From contig DJCU01000001.1 in assembly GCA_002430725.1 (NCBI GenBank), positions 9,639-73,638 on the forward strand: a stretch of 64,000 nt of DNA, read 5' to 3'. The DNA is from Candidatus Gottesmanbacteria bacterium UBA5942. Its GTDB lineage: Bacteria > Patescibacteriota > Microgenomatia > UBA10105 > UBA927. The position numbers and the translations under genes are program-made. The notes beneath the pieces were generated by a model. The model did not search any database, was not told the origin of the DNA, and was given only the letters and a program-made list of their open reading frames with translations. Positions 11,283 through 38,449 of the stretch are shown here, in pieces (the first letter of the stretch is position 1; each line of letters opens with the position of its first letter).

Positions 11283-13040
11283 TTACACTTCTAAAATAAC
11301 CGGAACGATAAGCGGACTTCTCCCCGTCTCTTTAAGAAGATACTCTTTAAGCGACTCCTCTATCCGCTTTCTGACATACTGCCAGTCAATAATCCTTCCT
11401 TTTTTGAGCGTCAAAGCATGAGATACCACATCGGCCGCTCGCGCGAGCAACTGCTGTGAGCCTTTCACGTAAACAAATCCCCGAGTGATAATCTCAGGAG
11501 CGCTCGTCATCCGCCCCGTTGCTTCCTCAATAGGTACAACCACTACCACGATACCCTCCAGTGCGATCGTCTGACGATCCCGAAGCACAACATTTCCCAC
11601 GTCCCCAATCCCCAATCCATCAATCATGATATGTTCAAGCGTTACTCGGTCGACTACTCGTGGTGGAGCATGTTCAGTAAATTCCATCACTTCCCCATCT
11701 TCAGGAATAATGACTGATCGTTTGTTGTATCCCAAATCCTCTGCAAGCCTTCGGTACTGCATGAGATGCTTATATGTGCCGCCAATTGGCCACACATATT
11801 TAGGTCCCACCGCAGAAAGCAACAACATCATGTCCCCGCTCGACCCATGACCTGACACATGAAGATCTTCCATAATATCGCTATATGACACCCTCGCGCC
11901 ATGTCGATATATTTGATCAATAAGTTTATTTACATCGTTTTCCCGCCCAGGAATAGGATCTGCTGAAATAATCACTGTATCAGTATCATTTAGCTTAATC
12001 ATTTTATGCGCATCATTTGCAATACGAGATAAATTTGAACTTGGCTGTCCCTGCGCTCCCGCCACCACCAAAAACTGTTTGTTTGCTGGCATGCGCTTGA
12101 GATCTCGATCGTTAATGATGACATCTCGTGGGAATTTCATGTACCTCAACTTTACTGATTCTTCTACGTTTTTATCGATACTCCGGCCTAAAAAGGCAAT
12201 TTTACGTCCATGTTTTTGCGCAAGCTCAATAGCAAGCTGTATACGGGAAATATTACTCGACTGCGTGGTAAACAATACCTTACCATGACTCAATCGCAAT
12301 TCTTTTTCTATTGTTTCACCGATAATTTGCTCGGAAGGGGTGAAACCCGGTCGCTCACTTCCTAAACTATCCGAAAGCATGCACAACACTCCTCTTTTCC
12401 CGACAGCGTTTATTTTCCCTATCTCAGATGGTTTATCGTCAAGCGGAGTAGGATCAAATTTAAAATCACTACCGTGATAAAAAATACCGACAGGTGTTTC
12501 AATCACGAGATGTGATGTATCTGGAATTGAGTGTGTCAAACGAATAAACGACACGCGAAAAGCGCCCGCCTCCACGACAGAATCAAACCGCATCGGCCGC
12601 ACTCGATCGCGTATTGGTGTTTCTTTCAATTTAAGGTTTGCGAAAGCCGCAGCAAGTGTTGGCCCATACATAGGGACTTTCCCAAGTTTTGGATAAATAT
12701 ACGGCAGTCCTCCGATGTGGTCATCGTGACCATGTGTAAAAACAAGCGCACGAATTTTATCCTTTTTATCCATAAGATACCGAACATCAGGGATAATGAG
12801 ATCAACCCCAAACATTTCGGCATCAGGAAATCCAATACCGCAATCTACAATAAGTATGTCGCGAATCTTACCGTCATAACGATATTCATAGACATACATA
12901 TTTTTGGTAACGTTCCCGCTTCCCCCAAGAGGGACAATGCGCACCGCACCTTTTCCTGAACTCGAACCAAATGATTTTCCTTCAAATATAGTTCTCCTTG
13001 CCGCATTGCGGGCTTGGTTATGTAGATACATTTTTTTCAT
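11283..13040 (-). CDS. rnj: Ribonuclease J (metallo-beta-lactamase plus beta-CASP).
   Basis: HGHDDHIGGLPYIY metallo-beta-lactamase motif, a beta-CASP region and 585 aa. Confidence 0.9.
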   Translation of the reverse strand: MKKMYLHNQARNAARRTIFEGKSFGSSSGKGAVRIVPLGGSGNVTKNMYVYEYRYDGKIRDILIVDCGIGFPDAEMFGVDLIIPDVRYLMDKKDKIRALVFTHGHDDHIGGLPYIYPKLGKVPMYGPTLAAAFANLKLKETPIRDRVRPMRFDSVVEAGAFRVSFIRLTHSIPDTSHLVIETPVGIFYHGSDFKFDPTPLDDKPSEIGKINAVGKRGVLCMLSDSLGSERPGFTPSEQIIGETIEKELRLSHGKVLFTTQSSNISRIQLAIELAQKHGRKIAFLGRSIDKNVEESVKLRYMKFPRDVIINDRDLKRMPANKQFLVVAGAQGQPSSNLSRIANDAHKMIKLNDTDTVIISADPIPGRENDVNKLIDQIYRHGARVSYSDIMEDLHVSGHGSSGDMMLLLSAVGPKYVWPIGGTYKHLMQYRRLAEDLGYNKRSVIIPEDGEVMEFTEHAPPRVVDRVTLEHIMIDGLGIGDVGNVVLRDRQTIALEGIVVVVVPIEEATGRMTSAPEIITRGFVYVKGSQQLLARAADVVSHALTLKKGRIIDWQYVRKRIEESLKEYLLKETGRSPLIVPVILEV

Positions 13041-13109: not shown

Positions 13110-14213
13110 CTAGTATACCTCTATAAAATTTTTAATATTATTTTCGTCTAAGTGAAACGATTTTTCTTTTCCTTCTATGATAGACAGTGCTACCTTCCGG
13201 CAAACACTATTTAATGTACGCTCAATCGAGCGAATACCAGCATCATACCCCAATGGACGGACTAACTTTGCCCACATCGCATCTGCAATCGTCAGATTTT
13301 CTGCTGTTAACCCTGACTCTCGCATAAGCTCTGGCATCACGTATTTTTTGGCAATCTCTATCTTTTCCTCATCAGTATATGAAGGCATCTGAATCGGCTC
13401 CAACCGATCTAAGACTGCTGTTGCAATATTTGTCGTGTTGTTACTAGTCGCAATAAACAGCACTTCTGACAAATCAAACGGATAATCAAGGTAATGATCG
13501 ACAAATGCTGAATTTTGTTCCGGATCCAACAATTCAACTAATACACCCATAATGTCGCCCCTCGCGTGTTCCGATACGCGGTCTACTTCGTCAAGCAATA
13601 CTACGGGATTTTTTGTTCCCGCAAACCGTAATCCTTTAAGGATAAGCCCTATTTCTGCATCTGGACGCACACGTGACTGTCCACGAAGTTCGAGTGCATC
13701 TGACATACCTCCAAATGCAATACGGACAAACCGTCTTCCCATCGCTTGCGCGATAGATTTTGCAAGTGTCGTTTTACCCGTACCAACAAGCCCTACCAGA
13801 CATAAAATAGGAGCGCGGCGGGCAAGCATTGCGTGTGTCGTTTTTGCTTCTTCCTCACGCGTATCCGTTGGCTTTTGTGCTTCTTTTGCCCATCGATCCT
13901 GATTGAGATGAATAACTGCCAAATATTCTAAAATGCGCTCCTTCACCGGTTGCAAACCATAGTGATGCATCTCAAGAATTTTTCTCGCGTTGGGTATATC
14001 TATCTGATCCTGAGTGCGTTCGTTCCAGGGTAAATTCACCACCCAATCGATATACCGAAGCATTTGTTCTATATGCACGCGCGCGGATATATCGTGCTCT
14101 AATCGTTCAATTTCTTCGAGATTAGATACAACTCTTGTCTCCATTTCCGGAGGAACTTGTACTTCCTTCAATTTTTTACGAAGTGAAGTGACTTCATCGA
14201 GCAGTCTAGACAT
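13110..14213 (-). CDS. Lon-like AAA+ ATPase module that lacks both the Lon N-terminal substrate domain and the S16 protease domain.
   Basis: YIDWVVNLPWNERTQ...HHYGLQPVKERILEYLAV...PILCLVGLVGTGKTTLAKSIAQAMGRRFVRIAFGG...VVLLDEVDRV...LDPEQNSAFVDHYL aligns with the LonA AAA+ region. The ORF ends at the AAA/protease boundary and no protease ORF follows. The alternative start at 14255 is less likely. Confidence 0.75.
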   Translation of the reverse strand: MSRLLDEVTSLRKKLKEVQVPPEMETRVVSNLEEIERLEHDISARVHIEQMLRYIDWVVNLPWNERTQDQIDIPNARKILEMHHYGLQPVKERILEYLAVIHLNQDRWAKEAQKPTDTREEEAKTTHAMLARRAPILCLVGLVGTGKTTLAKSIAQAMGRRFVRIAFGGMSDALELRGQSRVRPDAEIGLILKGLRFAGTKNPVVLLDEVDRVSEHARGDIMGVLVELLDPEQNSAFVDHYLDYPFDLSEVLFIATSNNTTNIATAVLDRLEPIQMPSYTDEEKIEIAKKYVMPELMRESGLTAENLTIADAMWAKLVRPLGYDAGIRSIERTLNSVCRKVALSIIEGKEKSFHLDENNIKNFIEVY

Positions 14214-14359
14214 AGTACTATCATAGCAAATTTTGTGCGGCAATACTGCGAGCACTCACGCGGAATCCATACACCGAGAATGAGTGTTTATCACAAAGGG
14301 ATATATAAACCCACGAATGTCGTGAAGCAGCCATGAATGGTGAAAGAACGCTCTACGGA

Positions 14360-16546
14360 TTAAAACCTTCTCCGTCCGCCACCGTATCCTCCGCGTCCAC
14401 CGCGCCCACCGCGATCGCCACCGCCAGAACGGGATTCAGCGGGTTTTGCTTTGGCATCTTCTCCAAATAACATGGAGAGATTGATGCGGTGCATATCGTC
14501 AATTTCCATCACACGAACCTTCACCTTTTGCCCGATCGACACAATCTTTGCAGGATCATCGACAAAGTCCACGCTCATCTGTGAGACATGCACCATGCCT
14601 TCCTTACCAGGGAGAATTTCAACGAATGCACCAAATGGCAATATTCGTTTTACTTCTCCTTCAAACTCTTCTCCTGCTTCGACATCATGTGTCAGACCCT
14701 CGACCCATTCGACTGCCTTTTGAACATTCATAGCGTCAGTGCCAGAGATAAACACTGACCCGTCATCATTGACGTCAACAGTGGCTCCGGTGGTCGCGAT
14801 GATGTTTCGGATTACTTTGCCACCCGGACCAATAACCTCACCGATTCGTTCGGTCGGAATTTTGATCACTTTAATCTTGGGCGCGTACTGTGAGACTGCC
14901 TTTCTTGGCGAGTCGATCACTGCATTAATTTTGCCCAATATCATCATACGAGCAACCTTTGCCCGTTCCAGCGTCTCTTCAACAATCTCATCAGTTAACC
15001 CGTCAATTTTCATGTCGAGCTGGATTGCCGTAATACCATTTTTGGTTCCGGCAACTTTAAAGTCCATGTCACCTGAAAAATCCTCAATTCCCAAAATATC
15101 GGTGAGCAATACATAATTCTTTTTATCAGACATAAGTCCGATGGAAATACCGGCAACTGGTTCTTTGATCGGAACTCCTGCATCCATAAGCGCTAACGTA
15201 GAGCCACACGTACTCGCCATAGATGTAGATCCGTTACTACTCATGATTTCAGATACCAGCCGAATGGTGTATGGAAATTCTTCCTCAGACGGAATAACTG
15301 CCATAAGTGCACGTTCGGCAAGTGCCCCGTGACCGATTTCGCGGCGTGACGGTGTTCCTACTCTCCCTGTTTCTCCGACAGAGTATGGAGGCATGCTGTA
15401 GTGGTGAATATATCGCTTGGATTCTTCTCCCATCGGGCTTTCAATAAGCTGTTCAAGGCTTGGAGTTCCCAATGTTGCAACAGTCAATGCTTGAGTTTGA
15501 CCACGCTTAAACATGGCACTTCCATGCGTTCTGGAAAGAATTCCCACTTCTATTTCTATGGGTCTTACTTCATCCAATTTGCGTCCGTCAAACCGCTTCT
15601 GGTGAAGTAATACATTCTCACGAACCTGTTTTTTGAACAACGCATCAAGCGCTTCTTCAATCGCTTTGATCGTGTAGTCGGCTCCGTAGTTTTCAGAGAT
15701 TACTTTGGCAAGCTCAGCAACTTCAGCGCCACCAAACTCTTTCTCGGCTTTCTTCGCAAACGCGACATCCATTTCTTTGCGATAGTCTTTTTCAATTTTC
15801 TTTTTCAACTCATCGGCTTCAGAAACCTCCGGCACTGTTACTTTTGTTTTTCCTACTTCACCCACCAACTCATTGATGAGATCGATAAGCTGTCCATTTA
15901 CTTTTTTCGCTTCAACAACAGCGCCTGCAACGATCGATTCTGGTGTTTCACAGAATCCGCCCTCTAACATAATAATCTTGTCTTTAGTACCTGAAACGAC
16001 AAAATCAAATTCACTCGTTTCCTGCTCTAAACTAGTCGGATTGATAATGTACGCGCCTGTTTCAGTACCTGTTTCTTTGACATACCCTACTCGTACACCT
16101 GCTATCGGCCCATTCCATGGAACAGGAGAGATAGCAATGGCTGCGCTGGTCGCGACCAATCCTAATACGTCAGGATCATTTTGTCCGTCAACAGAAAGCA
16201 CAGTAATAATCACCTGTACGTCATGCTTGTATGACTTTGGGAACAACGGTCGAATAGAACGATCTATGACACGACCAGCAAGCACTGCGTCATCGGTGGG
16301 TCGACCTTCACGCTTTACCCATCGACTGCCTTTGATACGTCCACCTGCATACAACCGCTCAACGTATTCGACAGAAAGCGGGAAGTAATCAAGGGTTGTT
16401 TCTTTACTTGAAGCGGTCACGGTAGCAAGTACCATGGTTTCTCCGTATTTCGCGAGCACTGCGGCTGACGCCTGCTCAGCAAACCGTCCGACTTCCAGCG
16501 TTAACGTTTTTCCTGCAATTTCTGCAGATTTGGAAATAATCTTCAT
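14360..16546 (-). CDS. pnp: Polynucleotide phosphorylase with a C-terminal RGG-rich tail.
   Basis: Two RNase PH domains, KH and S1 (GEEFEGEVKRILPFGAFVEI). Tail SRSGGGDRGGRGGRGGYGGGRRRF. Confidence 0.92.
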   Translation of the reverse strand: MKIISKSAEIAGKTLTLEVGRFAEQASAAVLAKYGETMVLATVTASSKETTLDYFPLSVEYVERLYAGGRIKGSRWVKREGRPTDDAVLAGRVIDRSIRPLFPKSYKHDVQVIITVLSVDGQNDPDVLGLVATSAAIAISPVPWNGPIAGVRVGYVKETGTETGAYIINPTSLEQETSEFDFVVSGTKDKIIMLEGGFCETPESIVAGAVVEAKKVNGQLIDLINELVGEVGKTKVTVPEVSEADELKKKIEKDYRKEMDVAFAKKAEKEFGGAEVAELAKVISENYGADYTIKAIEEALDALFKKQVRENVLLHQKRFDGRKLDEVRPIEIEVGILSRTHGSAMFKRGQTQALTVATLGTPSLEQLIESPMGEESKRYIHHYSMPPYSVGETGRVGTPSRREIGHGALAERALMAVIPSEEEFPYTIRLVSEIMSSNGSTSMASTCGSTLALMDAGVPIKEPVAGISIGLMSDKKNYVLLTDILGIEDFSGDMDFKVAGTKNGITAIQLDMKIDGLTDEIVEETLERAKVARMMILGKINAVIDSPRKAVSQYAPKIKVIKIPTERIGEVIGPGGKVIRNIIATTGATVDVNDDGSVFISGTDAMNVQKAVEWVEGLTHDVEAGEEFEGEVKRILPFGAFVEILPGKEGMVHVSQMSVDFVDDPAKIVSIGQKVKVRVMEIDDMHRINLSMLFGEDAKAKPAESRSGGGDRGGRGGRGGYGGGRRRF

Positions 16547-16700: not shown

Positions 16701-17162
16701 TTATGTTAAGCCTAATTTTTCTTTAATCTCTATAAACCGTTTCTTTTCTTTTTTCTCTAAGTAATTTAACAATCGGCGGCGTTTGCTGACAATGCCCAAA
16801 AGTCCGCGTCTTGAATGATTATCATGCGGATTGGTTCGAAGGTGTCCCACAAGCTTCTCAATTCTGCGGGTAAGCAATGCTACCTGTACTTCAGGACTAC
16901 CTGTATCACCATTTTTTACAGCAAACTGTGCGATAATTTCCTGTTTTTCAGGTGAGGGAATAGCTAACTCTTCTGCAGTCGGCGCTTTCGCTGCCTTTTT
17001 CTGTGATGCCTGCCCGGATATTTTTTTCGGAGCTTTCACCGGTTTTTCCGCTTTCGCTGCTTTTACTGTTTTTTCTACTTTCGAAACCTTTTCTTCAACT
17101 GGCTTCGTTGTCTTTTTTGCTGCGGGTTTTGCAGCGGCTTTTTTCGTTGTTTTTGTTGCCAT
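16701..17162 (-). CDS. rpsO: Ribosomal protein S15 with a Lys/Ala-rich N-terminal extension of about 65 aa.
   Basis: C-terminal [40 protein letters not shown] is canonical S15. The N-terminus [47 protein letters not shown] resembles a histone H1 tail. Confidence 0.85.
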
Positions 17163-17257: not shown

Positions 17258-18235
17258 TCAAAGAAGCGAAGAACTCTTAAAAATTTTTGGCTTGAGCCAA
17301 TCAGATGGCGGCGCCACTGGCTTTTTACTCTCATCCATAGTCTGGCTTGCTTTCGGTTCACTCATCGGCACTGGAACAGGAGCTGCCATCGGCTGTTCTT
17401 GAATGGGTGTTTGAATAGGAGCGGGAGTCGCTGATGTCACCGGCTGTTTATTGACAAACACTTTCGGTTCTTCTGCCATAACTGGTGGTTGATGACCAGC
17501 AACACCAAATCGTTTTGCTCCCGCTTTAAGACACACGCTTGCCACCTCAAACGCCATACTGGTGACATTGCTATTTGAAAAATTATTGGTCGCTTCATAA
17601 ATCGCGTTGAGTAAATTTGTCGCGATATCGGTCGTAAGCTTTACCCCAAGTGTTGCTAAAAATTCGGCAACAAGCTCTGTGGTCGAAGATGCACCAGGAT
17701 CCACAAGATTAATCACACCATAGTTGGTGTTATCACCATGGAAATCGATATTGATAATCTGCTTGCTATTCATGATGTCTTTCTGATGTTCATATACCGA
17801 CCCCAAATCTTTTGGATCGATGGTATCGACACTCAAGATAAGATCCGCTGATACTCCCTGATATGAGTACTGCACTTTATCAGGGCTAAAAAGGTCAAAT
17901 CCTGGACGATGTTCCACGACTAAATTGAACTTTTTGCCTTCGATATTATAGCTAACTTTTTCGATAGACCCATCGACATAATCAAGTGAAATAACAAAAT
18001 TTTTCTTGCCGAAATCCCGAACCACTCGATCGACTCCCACAAAACTGGATAAATTGACCGTAACCGGATCCGGACAAACAACGGTAGCTTTTTTACCGAG
18101 AGATATAAGCCCCAACATGAGGGCCAAACTTCCACCCATACTGTCCATGGTGGGCTTGGCGTGGGTAACAATGACAATGTCATTAGCTTTTCCCACAAGT
18201 TCTTTTGCTTTGGTGAGTGCTTCTTCGTAGGTCAT
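17258..18235 (-). CDS. nrnA: DHH/DHHA1 phosphoesterase (NrnA-like nanoRNase / pAp phosphatase) with a Pro-rich C-terminal tail.
   Basis: DHH motifs (VIVTHAKPTMDSMGG; IDFHGDN), a DHHA1 region, and the position between infB and rpsO. Confidence 0.7.
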   Translation of the reverse strand: MTYEEALTKAKELVGKANDIVIVTHAKPTMDSMGGSLALMLGLISLGKKATVVCPDPVTVNLSSFVGVDRVVRDFGKKNFVISLDYVDGSIEKVSYNIEGKKFNLVVEHRPGFDLFSPDKVQYSYQGVSADLILSVDTIDPKDLGSVYEHQKDIMNSKQIINIDFHGDNTNYGVINLVDPGASSTTELVAEFLATLGVKLTTDIATNLLNAIYEATNNFSNSNVTSMAFEVASVCLKAGAKRFGVAGHQPPVMAEEPKVFVNKQPVTSATPAPIQTPIQEQPMAAPVPVPMSEPKASQTMDESKKPVAPPSDWLKPKIFKSSSLL

Positions 18236-18297
18236 ATAATAAGCAATTCGTAACGAGAAAATAGAACAAATCTATTCACTCACTACTGCGCGCTAGA

Positions 18298-19785
18298 TTA
18301 GCCTGTAGTGAACGCTATTATACCATCTTGGAGCATAAAATCAACTTTTTTATCCAAAAATATACCGCACTCCCCTCCCACTTCCACCTTGGTCACTTCG
18401 TTCTTTCCCTGTCGCACCGACTTAATCCGTGCGGTACCGATAACCTCTTCTCCGCGGACAATGCGTACGGTATCGCCTTTGGCGAGTCTACCTGAAGCTA
18501 CTTTTGTACCTAAAATACGCTCTTTCTCGTAGGGAAACTCAGCGATGATAACTCCATTACCCAATTCACGCTCCCGAACCAGTAAGTCAGCCATACCAGC
18601 AACGACATCCTCCATCTCATCCAGAAGCTCATAGATAATAGAATAAAGCCGATAAATAACCTTTTCGTGGGTGGCAAGCTTGTCTACTCCATGACCCGCT
18701 TTTACATTAAATCCAACGACAACCGCGCCTGTTGCCCGAGCTTCAAGAATATCAGCCTCGGTAATGTCGCCAAGCGATCCACGCACAACATCTATTTCTC
18801 CTTTTGGCAATGCTTCCAATACCGCTTCGAGCGAACCTGCGGTGTCGGCCTTGATAAGAAGCTTGAGACGCTTTTTGTCAGCCTCGGTCATAGCAGCGAG
18901 AAAATCAGCCACGTTTGCTGCTTTTGTCGGCTCACTACTCACTTTTTGTACTACTGTACCTGGCTCACTAGAAAGCATCGCCCCCACCGAAGGAAGAGTC
19001 GAAAATCCCAATACCTCAACCGGTTTCCCAGGTGCCGCGCTCGCCACTTGCTTACCGTTTTCATCAACCATCGCCCGCACTTTACCGAGTAATTTTTCTT
19101 CCTCATAAAGTGGCGTAGATACAGTAAGCGTGCCTGATTTTATCAAAAGCGTTGCCACCTGGCCTCGAAATTTATCAACTTTTGCCTCGATAACGACAGC
19201 GCTCACTGTGCCTGATGGCTCATTTGCCAATCCTTTCATATCCGAAACGAGTAAAATAAGCTCAAGCAAGTCATCTACCCCTTTTCCTTCTTTTGCAGAT
19301 ACCAATACAAATGGCACATCGCCACCATAGCCTTCGACCTGTACTTCGTATTTGGCTAAATCAGACTTTACTTTGTCGATAATGACACCTTCTATATCAA
19401 TTTTGTTGATCGCAACAATCATGGGGATGCCGGCAGCATGAATTTGCCTGATAGATTCAATTGTCTGCGGTTTCACGCTATCATTTGCGGCAACGACCAA
19501 AATGGCAATATCGGCAGCGCTGGCGCCACGCGAACGGATTTTACTGAATGCTTCGTGTCCTGGGGTGTCGATAAACGTAATTTTTCGATCCTCTTTTGAT
19601 TTGGTTGTTATATCTATCTGATATGCACCGATATGCTGTGTAATACCCCCATGTTCCCGGGCTGCAACTGTCGTTTTTCGAATGGTATCGAGTAAGGTGG
19701 TTTTACCGTGGTCAACGTGACCCAAAACTGCCACCACTGGTGGCCGAGAAGACACAGAAGTAACTGGTGAACTTTTTTTTGCCAT
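18298..19785 (-). CDS. infB: Translation initiation factor IF-2, minimal form beginning at the G domain.
   Basis: [21 protein letters not shown] and DTPGHEAF G-motifs. 495 aa with no N-terminal extension. Confidence 0.9.
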
Positions 19786-25420: not shown

Positions 25421-25447
25421 TTAGCACTAATATACATCGAGTGCTAA
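25421..25447 (-). promoter_or_regulatory. CIRCE operator (HrcA binding site) overlapping the hrcA promoter.
   Basis: TTAGCACTA-ATATACATC-GAGTGCTAA against the consensus TTAGCACTC-N9-GAGTGCTAA: one mismatch. Confidence 0.85.
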
Positions 25448-36604: not shown

Positions 36605-38449
36605 ATGAAAGATGACCTCCTCAATGATTTAAACCCCGACCAGCAAAAAGCAGTGACGCACACCGATGGACCGGTGCTTATACTGGCCGGAGCAGGAAGC
36701 GGTAAAACACGAGTGCTTACGTGTAGAGTGGCATACCTTGTCGCAGAAAAAAAAGTGTCACCACACCACATCCTCATGGTGACATTTACCAATAAAGCGG
36801 CGAAAGAAATGAAAAATCGTATTCGTGCGCTTATCCATACGAAAGATCTTCCTTATGCCGGTACGTTCCACTCGCTCTGCGCGCTTATCCTCAGAGTGGA
36901 TGGGAAGCATATCAATATCTCGTCTAACTTCGTTATCTATGACGACCAGGATCAAATTGACGCCATCAAAGAAGTCATGAAAAAGCTTGATATTTCCCCC
37001 AAGCTCTATAATCCTCGTGCAGTACTTTCCACTATCTCGCAAGCAAAAAATGAGCTTATCCCCGCTTTAGAATACCCCAATCTCGCCCGCGGCAATTTTC
37101 AGGAAACGGTCGCGCGTGTGTATTTAGGATATCAAAAACTATTATTGGAAAACGAAGCGTTGGACTTTGATGACCTTCTTATGAAAACAGTCATGTTATT
37201 TAGAAGAAACCCCGAAGTCCTGGGTAAATACCAAGAAAAATACCACTATGTGTTAATCGATGAGTATCAGGACACTAACAAAGCACAATACGAACTCACC
37301 AAACAATTAAGTGCCCGGTGGAGAAATATTTGCGTTGTCGGAGACGCATCACAATCCATATATCGGTGGCGCGGAGCGGATTTTAGAAACATCACCAATT
37401 TTCGTACCGACTTTCCGGAAGTAAAAGTATTTAATCTTGAACAAAACTACCGGTCGACCCAAATGATCCTCAATGCCGCGTTTGGCGTCATTTCCAAAAA
37501 CACATCACACCCTATTCTCAAACTCTGGACAGACAAAAAAGGTGGCGACCACATCACGCTGTATGAAGCCCGAAACGAACAAGACGAAGCAACATTTCTT
37601 ATTCATATGATATTGCAGTCCGGTCGACCATTTTCTGACTTCGCGGTCCTTTATCGCACAAATGCACAGTCTCGGGTATTGGAAGAAGCATTTTTGCATG
37701 CTGGCGTCCCATACACATTGGTAGGAGGTACTCGATTTTATGAACGAAAAGAAATCAAAGACGTGCTTTCGTATTTACGATTACTTTCTAATCCCAAAGA
37801 CACCGTATCGTACAACCGGATAGAAAAACTTGGTAAAGGAAGAATGAAAAAATTTCTTTCATTTGCCGAGGAAATTACAAAAGAGAATAAACTGATACAG
37901 TTTACTACCCTCGAGCTCCTCGATAATACGCTGGAAGCTACCCACTATCTCGAACTGTATGACGCAAACGTAGAAGAAGAAGCCTATCGATTAGAAAACA
38001 TCAAAGAACTCAGGTCGGTGGCTACCGAATTTCCGAATCTAACCGAATTCTTAGAAAACGTGGCACTCGTAGAACAGGAATATACACCCGAGCGCGTCAA
38101 AGAAATGGGAGAAAATCGACAAGCCGTCACCCTTATGACTTTACATGCGGCGAAGGGACTGGAATTTCCTGTCGTTTCAATTGTTGGCATGGAAGAAGGA
38201 ATATTCCCCCACAGTCGTTCACTCATGGAAAAAGATGAAATAGAAGAAGAAAGACGACTTTGCTATGTAGGTATTACCAGAGCAAAAGAAAAGCTATATC
38301 TTACCTACGCCAACAAAAGATTATTCTTTGGTACTCGCACCCAAAACATGATTTCACGATTTATCGCAGATATTCCGGAAGCAACACTCGATCTACAAGT
38401 TTCACTGTCACAGGATCGGGGATTTCGGGATGACGATATGCTCCTTTAG
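36605..38449 (+). CDS. pcrA: UvrD/PcrA-family superfamily-1 DNA helicase, short form.
   Basis: Walker A ILAGAGSGKTRVLT, helicase motifs through VGDASQSIYRWRGA...YRST, and 614 aa. Confidence 0.85.
   Translation: MKDDLLNDLNPDQQKAVTHTDGPVLILAGAGSGKTRVLTCRVAYLVAEKKVSPHHILMVTFTNKAAKEMKNRIRALIHTKDLPYAGTFHSLCALILRVDGKHINISSNFVIYDDQDQIDAIKEVMKKLDISPKLYNPRAVLSTISQAKNELIPALEYPNLARGNFQETVARVYLGYQKLLLENEALDFDDLLMKTVMLFRRNPEVLGKYQEKYHYVLIDEYQDTNKAQYELTKQLSARWRNICVVGDASQSIYRWRGADFRNITNFRTDFPEVKVFNLEQNYRSTQMILNAAFGVISKNTSHPILKLWTDKKGGDHITLYEARNEQDEATFLIHMILQSGRPFSDFAVLYRTNAQSRVLEEAFLHAGVPYTLVGGTRFYERKEIKDVLSYLRLLSNPKDTVSYNRIEKLGKGRMKKFLSFAEEITKENKLIQFTTLELLDNTLEATHYLELYDANVEEEAYRLENIKELRSVATEFPNLTEFLENVALVEQEYTPERVKEMGENRQAVTLMTLHAAKGLEFPVVSIVGMEEGIFPHSRSLMEKDEIEEERRLCYVGITRAKEKLYLTYANKRLFFGTRTQNMISRFIADIPEATLDLQVSLSQDRGFRDDDMLL

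Follow-up and report, generated by a model that had tools for sequence, protein, structure and literature searches.

The stand-alone Lon ATPase of Candidatus Gottesmanbacteria bacterium UBA5942 is an AAA+ protein of 367 amino acids (aa) that harbors the motor module of LonA without the protease domain or the N-terminal domain found in that enzyme. Its gene lies on the minus strand of a 64,000-nt stretch of DNA, referred to here as the window, which covers positions 9,639-73,638 (forward strand) of contig DJCU01000001.1 in assembly GCA_002430725.1. The protein belongs to a conserved family passed down through that part of the Candidate Phyla Radiation (CPR), also referred to as the Patescibacteria, which is made up of the Microgenomatia, WWE3, and Dojkabacteria. 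It probably acts as a protease-independent, ATP-driven remodeling or chaperone-like factor whose clients are not fed to a protease. The family represents a real and widely conserved variant of a well-known machine, and in the literature no description was found of a protease-less Lon, either in CPR bacteria or elsewhere.

The extent of the gene can be set with some precision. The maximal open reading frame (ORF) starts from a GTG codon and encompasses 13110..14255 on the minus strand, corresponding to 381 aa. However, the real start is almost certainly the ATG at position 14213, which would give the 367-aa product, as the orthologs begin with MS(K/R)L at this point and as the gene calls on at least 24 public contigs give exactly this protein. 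These contigs come from independent assemblies, and several of them are longer than 1 Mb.

Within the 367-aa protein, Pfam recognizes only AAA (PF00004, 1.5e-17) and Lon_lid (PF22667, 9e-12). The NCBIfam model for full-length Lon, TIGR00763 'lon', is matched over positions 253-572 of 795 with a score of 340.2 bits against a cut-off of 608.05, a shortfall that arises because both ends of the model are missing from the protein; the PRK10787 score is likewise 263.5 against a cut-off of 891. The top sequence matches in the PDB are the LonA enzymes of B. subtilis, Meiothermus, and E. coli, with E-values from 1e-73 to 1e-82. When E. coli Lon (EcLon, from NC_000913) was compared with the window by tblastn, residues 249-581 alone were matched. 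Overall, the protein corresponds to EcLon residues of about 244-581, which make up the three-helix bundle, the AAA+ module, and the Lon lid, at 37-45% identity. No Pfam match to Lon_C or the S16 protease domain is found in the protein, and EcLon residues 585-784 find no counterpart in the window by tblastn. There is also no match in the protein to PF02190, the N-terminal LON substrate-binding domain; the chain begins at the equivalent of EcLon residue 244, and the long coiled-coil helix of LonA is not present in the 367 residues. Among the Pfam and NCBIfam matches there was no model dedicated to the stand-alone family. The protein does not qualify as a Lon protease and should not be filed as one, since it has neither an S16 domain nor an N domain, scores below the equivalog cut-off, and carries non-canonical pore loops.

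These results bear out an earlier, sequence-only reading of the window, which had described a Lon AAA+ module encoded without the N-domain or S16 domain. The same reading had placed the gene between pnp and the gene for RNase J with no protease ORF behind it, and this too is correct. The TAG stop is separated from the start codon of rnj by 69 nt, so that a protease ORF cannot follow. The Walker A and Walker B motifs it quoted, GLVGTGKT and LLDEVD, are both present. Its statement that the ORF aligns residue for residue with the LonA AAA+ region does not hold at either of the pore loops. It also needs correcting at the linker before strand beta-1, which has 34 aa in this protein, whereas the median for full-length Lon is 9 aa. 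The length of this linker varies within the family.

The AlphaFold (AF2) model has a mean predicted local distance difference test score (pLDDT) of 81. In it, three helices at the N-terminus are followed by a nucleotide-binding domain with a Rossmann-like fold and by a helical lid. Low confidence is found solely at residues 117-133, where the pLDDT is below 50, and at residues 180-188. Within the first 100 residues the helices cover positions 3-17, 22-37, and 42-60. Foldseek superposes the model on the AAA+ modules of LONP1, MtaLon, EcLon, and the EcLon fragment 6N2I, with query TM-scores (TMq) of 0.70-0.83. The alignments to Lon structures span about 355-367 columns, and the target TM-score (TMt) against 6N2I is 0.88.

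The ATPase machinery has been retained throughout. For the comparison of individual residues, 183 stand-alone sequences (the window protein and 182 others) were aligned with 70 full-length LonA proteins. The Walker A Lys and Thr, the Walker B Asp-Glu pair, the sensor-1 Asn, the Arg finger, and the sensor-2 Arg are found in 183 of the 183 stand-alone sequences, the Walker A motif having the family consensus GL(V/Q)G(T/V)GKT. The Tyr/Asp of the pre-sensor-1 (PS1) hairpin and the Tyr/Trp of the three-helix bundle are retained in nearly all. In the window protein, the hairpin equivalents of EcLon Y456 and E458 are Y and D, and the aromatic cluster of the bundle is kept as Y54/W57 (EcLon Y294/W297). 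In LonA, these hairpin and bundle residues couple the nucleotide state to pore loop 1 (PMC7239648). The protein would be expected to form a ring and to hydrolyze ATP, given that the invariant Arg finger acts in trans and that the equivalent fragment EcLon(235-584) packs in crystals as a hexameric helix.

The pore loops, by comparison, have been remodeled. In LonA, pore loop 1 has the motif H-R-R-T-Y-[VI]-G-A-[ML]-P-G, and the Tyr is found in 70/70 of the full-length proteins. In the stand-alone family, the motif is [QE..]-S-R-x-x-P-[DE]-A-E-[PI]-G, and the window protein reads S-R-V-R-P-D-A-E-I-G, with Arg at the equivalent of Tyr398 followed by Pro. Among the Microgenomatia-type proteins, the Tyr398 equivalent is R in 40, H in 31, F in 15, and Y in 8 (R or H in about 63%) and the next residue is mostly Pro, while in the Dojkabacteria the position is occupied by E, N, T, or S. 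The variable stretch that aligns with the gripping Tyr is adjoined by a conserved acidic segment, [DE]-A-E-[PI]-G. In pore loop 2, the aromatic position (F/Y/W/M in LonA) has become A, T, S, or G. These are the residues that handle substrate in the protease. Tyr398 and Ile399 of LonA clamp the substrate backbone (PMC7239648), and Tyr397 and Trp431 of MtaLonA touch the substrate and are required for its degradation (PMC8503904).

The family is widespread among CPR bacteria. When 5.8 billion proteins were searched, more than 120 clusters with 74-91% identity and lengths of 342-378 aa were recovered, all containing AAA and Lon_lid only; NCBI names these 'AAA family ATPase' and assigns them to Gottesmanbacteria, Microgenomates, or Patescibacteria. 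A second subfamily, of about 120 clusters and 353-520 aa, is found in the Dojkabacteria, and the two subfamilies together encompass more than 240 protein clusters of this composition. About a dozen further divergent stand-alone clusters are present in a library of representatives at 50% identity. In a scan of one genome per species, 592 stretches were confirmed to carry the family, the best 80 of the 592 coming from Gottesman-, Woese-, Shapiro-, Ames-, Levy-, Curtiss-, and Daviesbacteria and from WWE3. A complete ORF of 340-438 aa with the same stop position is found in 83/83 of the related loci examined. In a neighbor-joining tree of the AAA+ region, 51 stand-alone proteins and 70 full-length LonA proteins separate with bootstraps of 100/100, and within the sampling of this tree the domains appear to have been lost once, long ago. 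The nonsynonymous distance (dN) lies between 0.11 and 0.21, with the synonymous distance (dS) saturated in all pairs but one, and the family is under strong purifying selection. Measured by identity to the window copy across the same loci, the ATPase is about as well conserved as PNPase and FtsK, and better conserved than RNase J, IF2, and the DHH protein.

From these observations a mechanism can be proposed. Of its LonA ancestor, the protein keeps only the three-helix bundle, nucleotide-binding domain, and Lon lid, and it has lost the protease domain, the N-terminal recognition domain, and the conserved gripping residues of the pore loops. It is predicted to be an active, ring-forming ATPase. 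Such an ATPase would bind its clients and then release or reshape them without feeding a protease. We infer that the ring does not thread polypeptides processively in the manner of LonA, and would hence not serve as the feeding arm of a protease. The sequence-only reading had proposed, as one of three options, a Lon-derived unfoldase or chaperone that works independently of a protease. The protease-independent ATPase is supported, but the term unfoldase is doubtful because neither the Tyr/hydrophobic pair of pore loop 1 nor the aromatic residue of pore loop 2 is conserved. As to the clients, it may be speculated that they are related to RNA or the ribosome.

A number of observations weigh against this proposal. 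In about 20% of the Microgenomatia-type sequences the Tyr398 position is occupied by F or Y, and one subclade has YF or FF at this site. Furthermore, F or Y is found in many members at the site in the bundle that corresponds to EcLon M284, a residue that lines the entry pore in LonA (PMC7239648). On this basis, the family may possess some threading ability. The C-terminus is also conserved. The last residue is W or Y in 55/83 Microgenomatia-type proteins and S in 117/119 Dojkabacteria proteins (P0141 and P0271-P0389; loci L085, L086, and L089), most of which terminate in ...PEDIG[VI]YS, within the former AAA-to-protease linker. We take this hydrophobic-Tyr-X terminus of the Dojkabacteria to resemble the docking tails of proteasomal ATPases. 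The aromatic C-terminus and the G-[VI]-Y-S ending of the Dojkabacteria proteins could therefore represent a motif for docking to a partner.

The alternative that has to be taken most seriously, although we consider it unlikely, is that the protein is a true unfoldase or translocase with a diverged pore, in effect a ClpX made from Lon. It would act by itself, as an unfoldase or as a chaperone of the disaggregase type, or be assisted by DnaK and DnaJ. The intact ATPase machinery and PS1 beta-hairpin, which couple hydrolysis to movement of the pore loop, would suit such an activity, as would the aromatic residues just described at the Tyr398 and M284 equivalents. In the window, the same strand carries the hrcA-grpE-dnaK-dnaJ operon some 7-11 kb upstream of the gene, and in the Dojkabacteria groES-groEL-clpB is found a few kb downstream. 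The Tyr398 site is, however, under no aromatic constraint, being mainly R or H in the Microgenomatia-type proteins and polar or acidic in those of the Dojkabacteria. The next hydrophobic residue has mostly been replaced by Pro in the Microgenomatia-type proteins, the aromatic residue of pore loop 2 has been lost, and the tip in the window protein is V-R-P. Nor is the gene preceded by the CIRCE (controlling inverted repeat of chaperone expression) operator, the sole window copy of which belongs to hrcA.

The genomic context hints at a different role, in which the protein would be a nucleic-acid- or ribonucleoprotein-directed ATPase that joins PNPase and RNase J in a module for RNA decay or ribosome maintenance. 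We regard this as improbable. Among 81 Microgenomatia-type loci, the immediate upstream neighbor on the same strand is pnp in 67/74 that could be assessed, and rnj lies downstream in 67/72. This linkage persists in loci where the identity to the window protein falls to 45%. In the Dojkabacteria, the gene follows yidC-(jag)-rplY, a context that is also related to RNA or the ribosome, and the gene context as a whole hints weakly at partners of this kind. Lon ATPase modules are reported to bind DNA and polyphosphate, and the Arg-rich tails of the neighboring PNPases could be bound by an acidic pore. Against this, the infB-DHH-rpsO-pnp-X-rnj-ftsK block (X denotes the stand-alone ATPase) is wholly syntenic, such that the linkage may reflect inherited gene order rather than function. 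The linkage to pnp and rnj is absent in the Dojkabacteria and in other divergent members, two of which have still different neighbors. Moreover, the gene seems to have a promoter of its own, with a terminator-like hairpin after pnp, and the acidic pore loops argue against the threading of RNA. A more specific version of the idea, which we consider a long shot, holds that the Lon motor has been repurposed as the ATP-driven part of a minimal rpsO-pnp-X-rnj module for RNA decay or ribosome maintenance and that its conserved acidic pore motif engages disordered tails rich in Arg and Lys. The RGG/RRRF tails of PNPase would in this case be engaged in order to assemble, disassemble, or strip RNA-binding proteins. 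Were this true, an AAA+ ATPase would stand in place of the DEAD-box helicases of other bacteria.

It is very improbable that the protein is one half of a split Lon, in which the ATPase ring docks in trans, via its C-terminal tail, on a separate S16 or other chambered peptidase. The idea draws on the conserved tail, on the position of the C-terminus within what was once the AAA-to-protease linker, and on other ATPases of the HCLR clade, such as ClpX and HslU, which use separate peptidases. A profile hidden Markov model (HMM) built from 70 LonA protease domains nevertheless had no match among 9132 six-frame ORFs from the window and 88 related loci (1.41 Mb). No peptidase gene consistently adjoins the family gene in four to five different gene contexts, and no chambered protease was recognized by Pfam in the 46 other ORFs of the window. 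The gripping pore loops, which would be needed to feed a protease, are not conserved. The pairing with a protease encoded elsewhere that the sequence-only reading had envisaged is not supported by the window and the 88 related loci, in which no S16 domain lies next to the gene in any lineage. A Lon N-domain HMM gave a single match in the window and the 88 loci. This is an unrelated ORF of 234 aa in locus L058 (955-1656, minus strand), which consists of the Lon N-terminal domain only (PF02190, 4e-33) and lies about 8 kb from the AAA+ gene in one metagenome-assembled genome (MAG). As the search of 5.8 billion proteins detected one homologue of this ORF, it is an oddity and was rejected as a conserved partner.

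Finally, a truncation, pseudogene remnant, or artefact of a normal lon gene, which is what the stop at the expected start of the protease domain first brings to mind and what had earlier been raised as a recent truncation, frameshift, or assembly chimera, is virtually excluded by the complete ORFs in 83/83 loci, the more than 240 clusters, the identical protein in at least 24 independent contigs, the purifying selection (dN 0.11-0.21), the intact rnj gene 69 nt past the stop, and the hundreds of orthologs that share the same ends and form one clade apart from full-length LonA (100/100). The reading that best fits the evidence remains that of a protease-independent remodeling ATPase, the features of which are collected in Table 1.

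Table 1. Features of the stand-alone Lon ATPase gene, its product, and its immediate surroundings (positions in the window).
Feature	Position	Strand	Remarks
RNase J (rnj)	11283-13040	-	own ribosome-binding site
Coding sequence, stand-alone LonA-derived AAA+ ATPase	13110..14213	-	367 aa + stop
C-terminal tail NFIEVY	13113..13130	-	remnant of start of AAA-to-protease linker
Lon lid (alpha-helical small subdomain)	13161..13319	-	includes sensor 2
Sensor 2, DAGIRS	13227-13244	-	R328 invariant
Arginine finger, LDRLE	13398..13412	-	R270 invariant
Sensor 1, ATSNN	13437..13451	-	N258 invariant
Pre-sensor-1 beta-hairpin FVDHYLDYPFDLS	13467..13505	-	model strands 237-239, 242-246
Pore-loop-2 region RVSEHARGDIM	13548..13580	-	F/Y/W/M of LonA replaced by Ala, then family-specific I-M
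Walker B, VVLLDEVD	13581..13604	-	D208/E209 pair invariant
Pore-loop-1 region LRGQSRVRPDAEIG	13647..13688	-	Tyr398 equivalent is Arg; pLDDT low at 180-188
Walker A, GLVGTGKT	13770..13793	-	GPPGVGKT in LonA; Lys and Thr family-invariant
Lengthened charged linker before strand beta-1	13812..13913	-	aa 101-134; pLDDT <50 at 117-133
Three-helix bundle (C-terminal part of HI(CC)) and first helices into nucleotide-binding domain	13914..14213	-	aa 1-100
Extended -10-like element TGCTATGAT	14220..14228	-	ends 6 nt upstream of ATG; no Shine-Dalgarno
Terminator-like hairpin with T-rich tail	14310..14326	-	between pnp and AAA+ gene
pnp	14360-16546	-	

The gene probably has a promoter of its own and gives rise to a leaderless mRNA. 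This is suggested by the -10-like element TGCTATGAT close to the ATG, by the lack of a Shine-Dalgarno sequence, and by the recurrence of the element among orthologs: a TANNNT hexamer no more than 16 nt upstream of the start, and ending at least 4 nt before it, is found at 53/70 orthologous loci, compared with 5/26 for rnj. The orthologous upstream regions were taken from L001 and L005-L084. Regulation by heat shock through CIRCE was considered and rejected, as no copy of the operator lies upstream of the ATPase gene. The single copy in the window (TTAGCACTA-N9-GAGTGCTAA, 25421-25447, plus strand) has one mismatch, with zero such sites expected by chance, and is found at the start of hrcA-grpE-dnaK-dnaJ. 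A scan at the Rfam gathering thresholds found no structured RNA near the gene. Elsewhere in the window (38221-38317, plus strand), RF03531, described as a C. difficile 'sRNA included into helicase gene', was matched with 66.7 bits against a cut-off of 65.2. This match falls within a UvrD/PcrA helicase ORF (36605-38449) and most likely reflects conservation of coding sequence and not an sRNA.

On the minus strand of the window, the gene order is hrcA-grpE-dnaK-dnaJ-nusA-infB-DHH-rpsO-pnp-X-rnj-ftsK-HTH. Membership of an anti-phage defense system was considered and rejected, as PADLOC returned weak generic AAA matches only (E 1e-7 or worse), with no support for a BrxL-like or other defense AAA+ protein, and the context is one of housekeeping genes. 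The order infB-rpsO-pnp-X-rnj-ftsK, typical of Microgenomates, also occurs on many MAG contigs titled 'uncultured Gammaproteobacteria', 'Pseudomonadales', 'Bathyarchaeia archaeon', and 'Methanoperedens' (among them L005, L006, L008, L014, L016, and L073), labels that are apparently placeholders or wrong.

Several of the neighboring genes have features of their own. The C-terminus of PNPase (14360-14450, minus strand) is an Arg/Gly-rich tail ending in ...SRSGGGDRGGRGGRGGYGGGRRRF, and Arg-rich basic tails are found on PNPase in 69/69 related loci, many ending in RRRF, RPRR, or RPRY. This tail is an unusual extension that possibly serves to bind RNA or a partner. Ribosomal protein S15 (16701-17162, minus strand) has 153 aa, against about 89 aa for a usual bacterial S15, and is extended at its N-terminus by some 65 residues rich in Lys and Ala. 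The adjoining region (17258-19785, minus strand) encodes a short IF2 of 495 aa and, between infB and rpsO, a DHH-family protein of 325 aa with a Pro-rich C-terminus. The DHH protein occupies the same place in related loci, and in many bacteria this interval is taken up by rbfA and truB.

Some members of the family carry variable N-terminal extensions rich in Q, P, or T. Five longer proteins (P0142, P0419, P0137, P0150, and P0145) were considered as Rosetta-stone fusions and rejected, as all that they add is low-complexity, Q/P-rich sequence at the N-terminus or insertions in the linker, in which Pfam recognizes no domain. In P0142 (669 aa) and P0419 (703 aa), the Gln/Pro-rich extension is about 360-400 aa long and contains tandem QPQQPQVQPVQFGQQ repeats, and pore loop 1 of both retains the aromatic pair (SRYFPDAEPG).

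The family is of interest for a number of reasons. Its conservation, on a par with that of PNPase and FtsK in genomes of around 1 Mb, implies that the gene probably plays an important part in organisms about whose proteostasis and RNA metabolism little is known. The family is a natural test case for the abilities of a lone Lon ATPase ring, a question that bears on the long-debated chaperone activity of Lon, and for how much change the pore loops tolerate while the motor is retained. There is also a matter of annotation. JGI/IMG labels members of the family 'ATP-dependent Lon protease' or 'endopeptidase La', whereas NCBI uses 'AAA family ATPase'. With the former labels, automated metabolic reconstructions may wrongly attribute to these CPR lineages a Lon protease for which this gene does not code.

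Lon is defined by the fusion of motor and protease in one chain, and we know of no described natural family in which a fully intact Lon motor occurs minus the protease. The LonA enzymes (E. coli Lon, B. subtilis LonA, M. taiwanensis LonA, and human LONP1; MEROPS S16) have the bundle, nucleotide-binding domain, hairpin, Lon lid, and ATPase motifs in common with the CPR protein. However, the latter is without the LON N domain, the long coiled coil, and the S16 domain, its pore loops and Walker A motif are changed, and its linker is longer. ClpX and HslU belong to the same HCLR clade and, like the CPR protein, are single-ring, stand-alone AAA+ ATPases without a protease domain of their own. They have aromatic-hydrophobic pore loops (GYVG), defined docking elements, and partner peptidases. 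The CPR family, by contrast, has not conserved the gripping residues and has no evident partner.

ClpB and Hsp104 are also AAA+ machines that work independently of a protease, but ClpB is built of two AAA+ rings with an M domain and carries Tyr in its pore loops, and the similarity of the CPR protein to Hsp104 as measured by HMMER is weak (E about 1e-5). The HI(CC) domain and AAA+ module of LonA have themselves been proposed to be related to ClpB (PMC6722904). The closest counterpart in terms of extent is EcLon(235-584), a stable fragment obtained by limited proteolysis, which crystallizes as an open hexameric helix with ADP bound (PDB 6N2I; PMC6722904). Its boundaries, encompassing the C-terminal part of HI(CC) and the AAA+ module, are nearly identical to those of the CPR protein. 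However, 6N2I is a laboratory fragment with canonical pore loops, whereas the CPR protein is a natural, selected product in which these loops have been remodeled. The converse arrangement is found in LonC of Meiothermus taiwanensis, which is described as a Lon-like protease without ATP-powered unfolding and with a degenerate, inactive AAA-like domain (PMC3391209). On that description, LonC too has given up one of the two coupled activities of Lon, but in LonC it is the protease that is kept and the ATPase that is dead.

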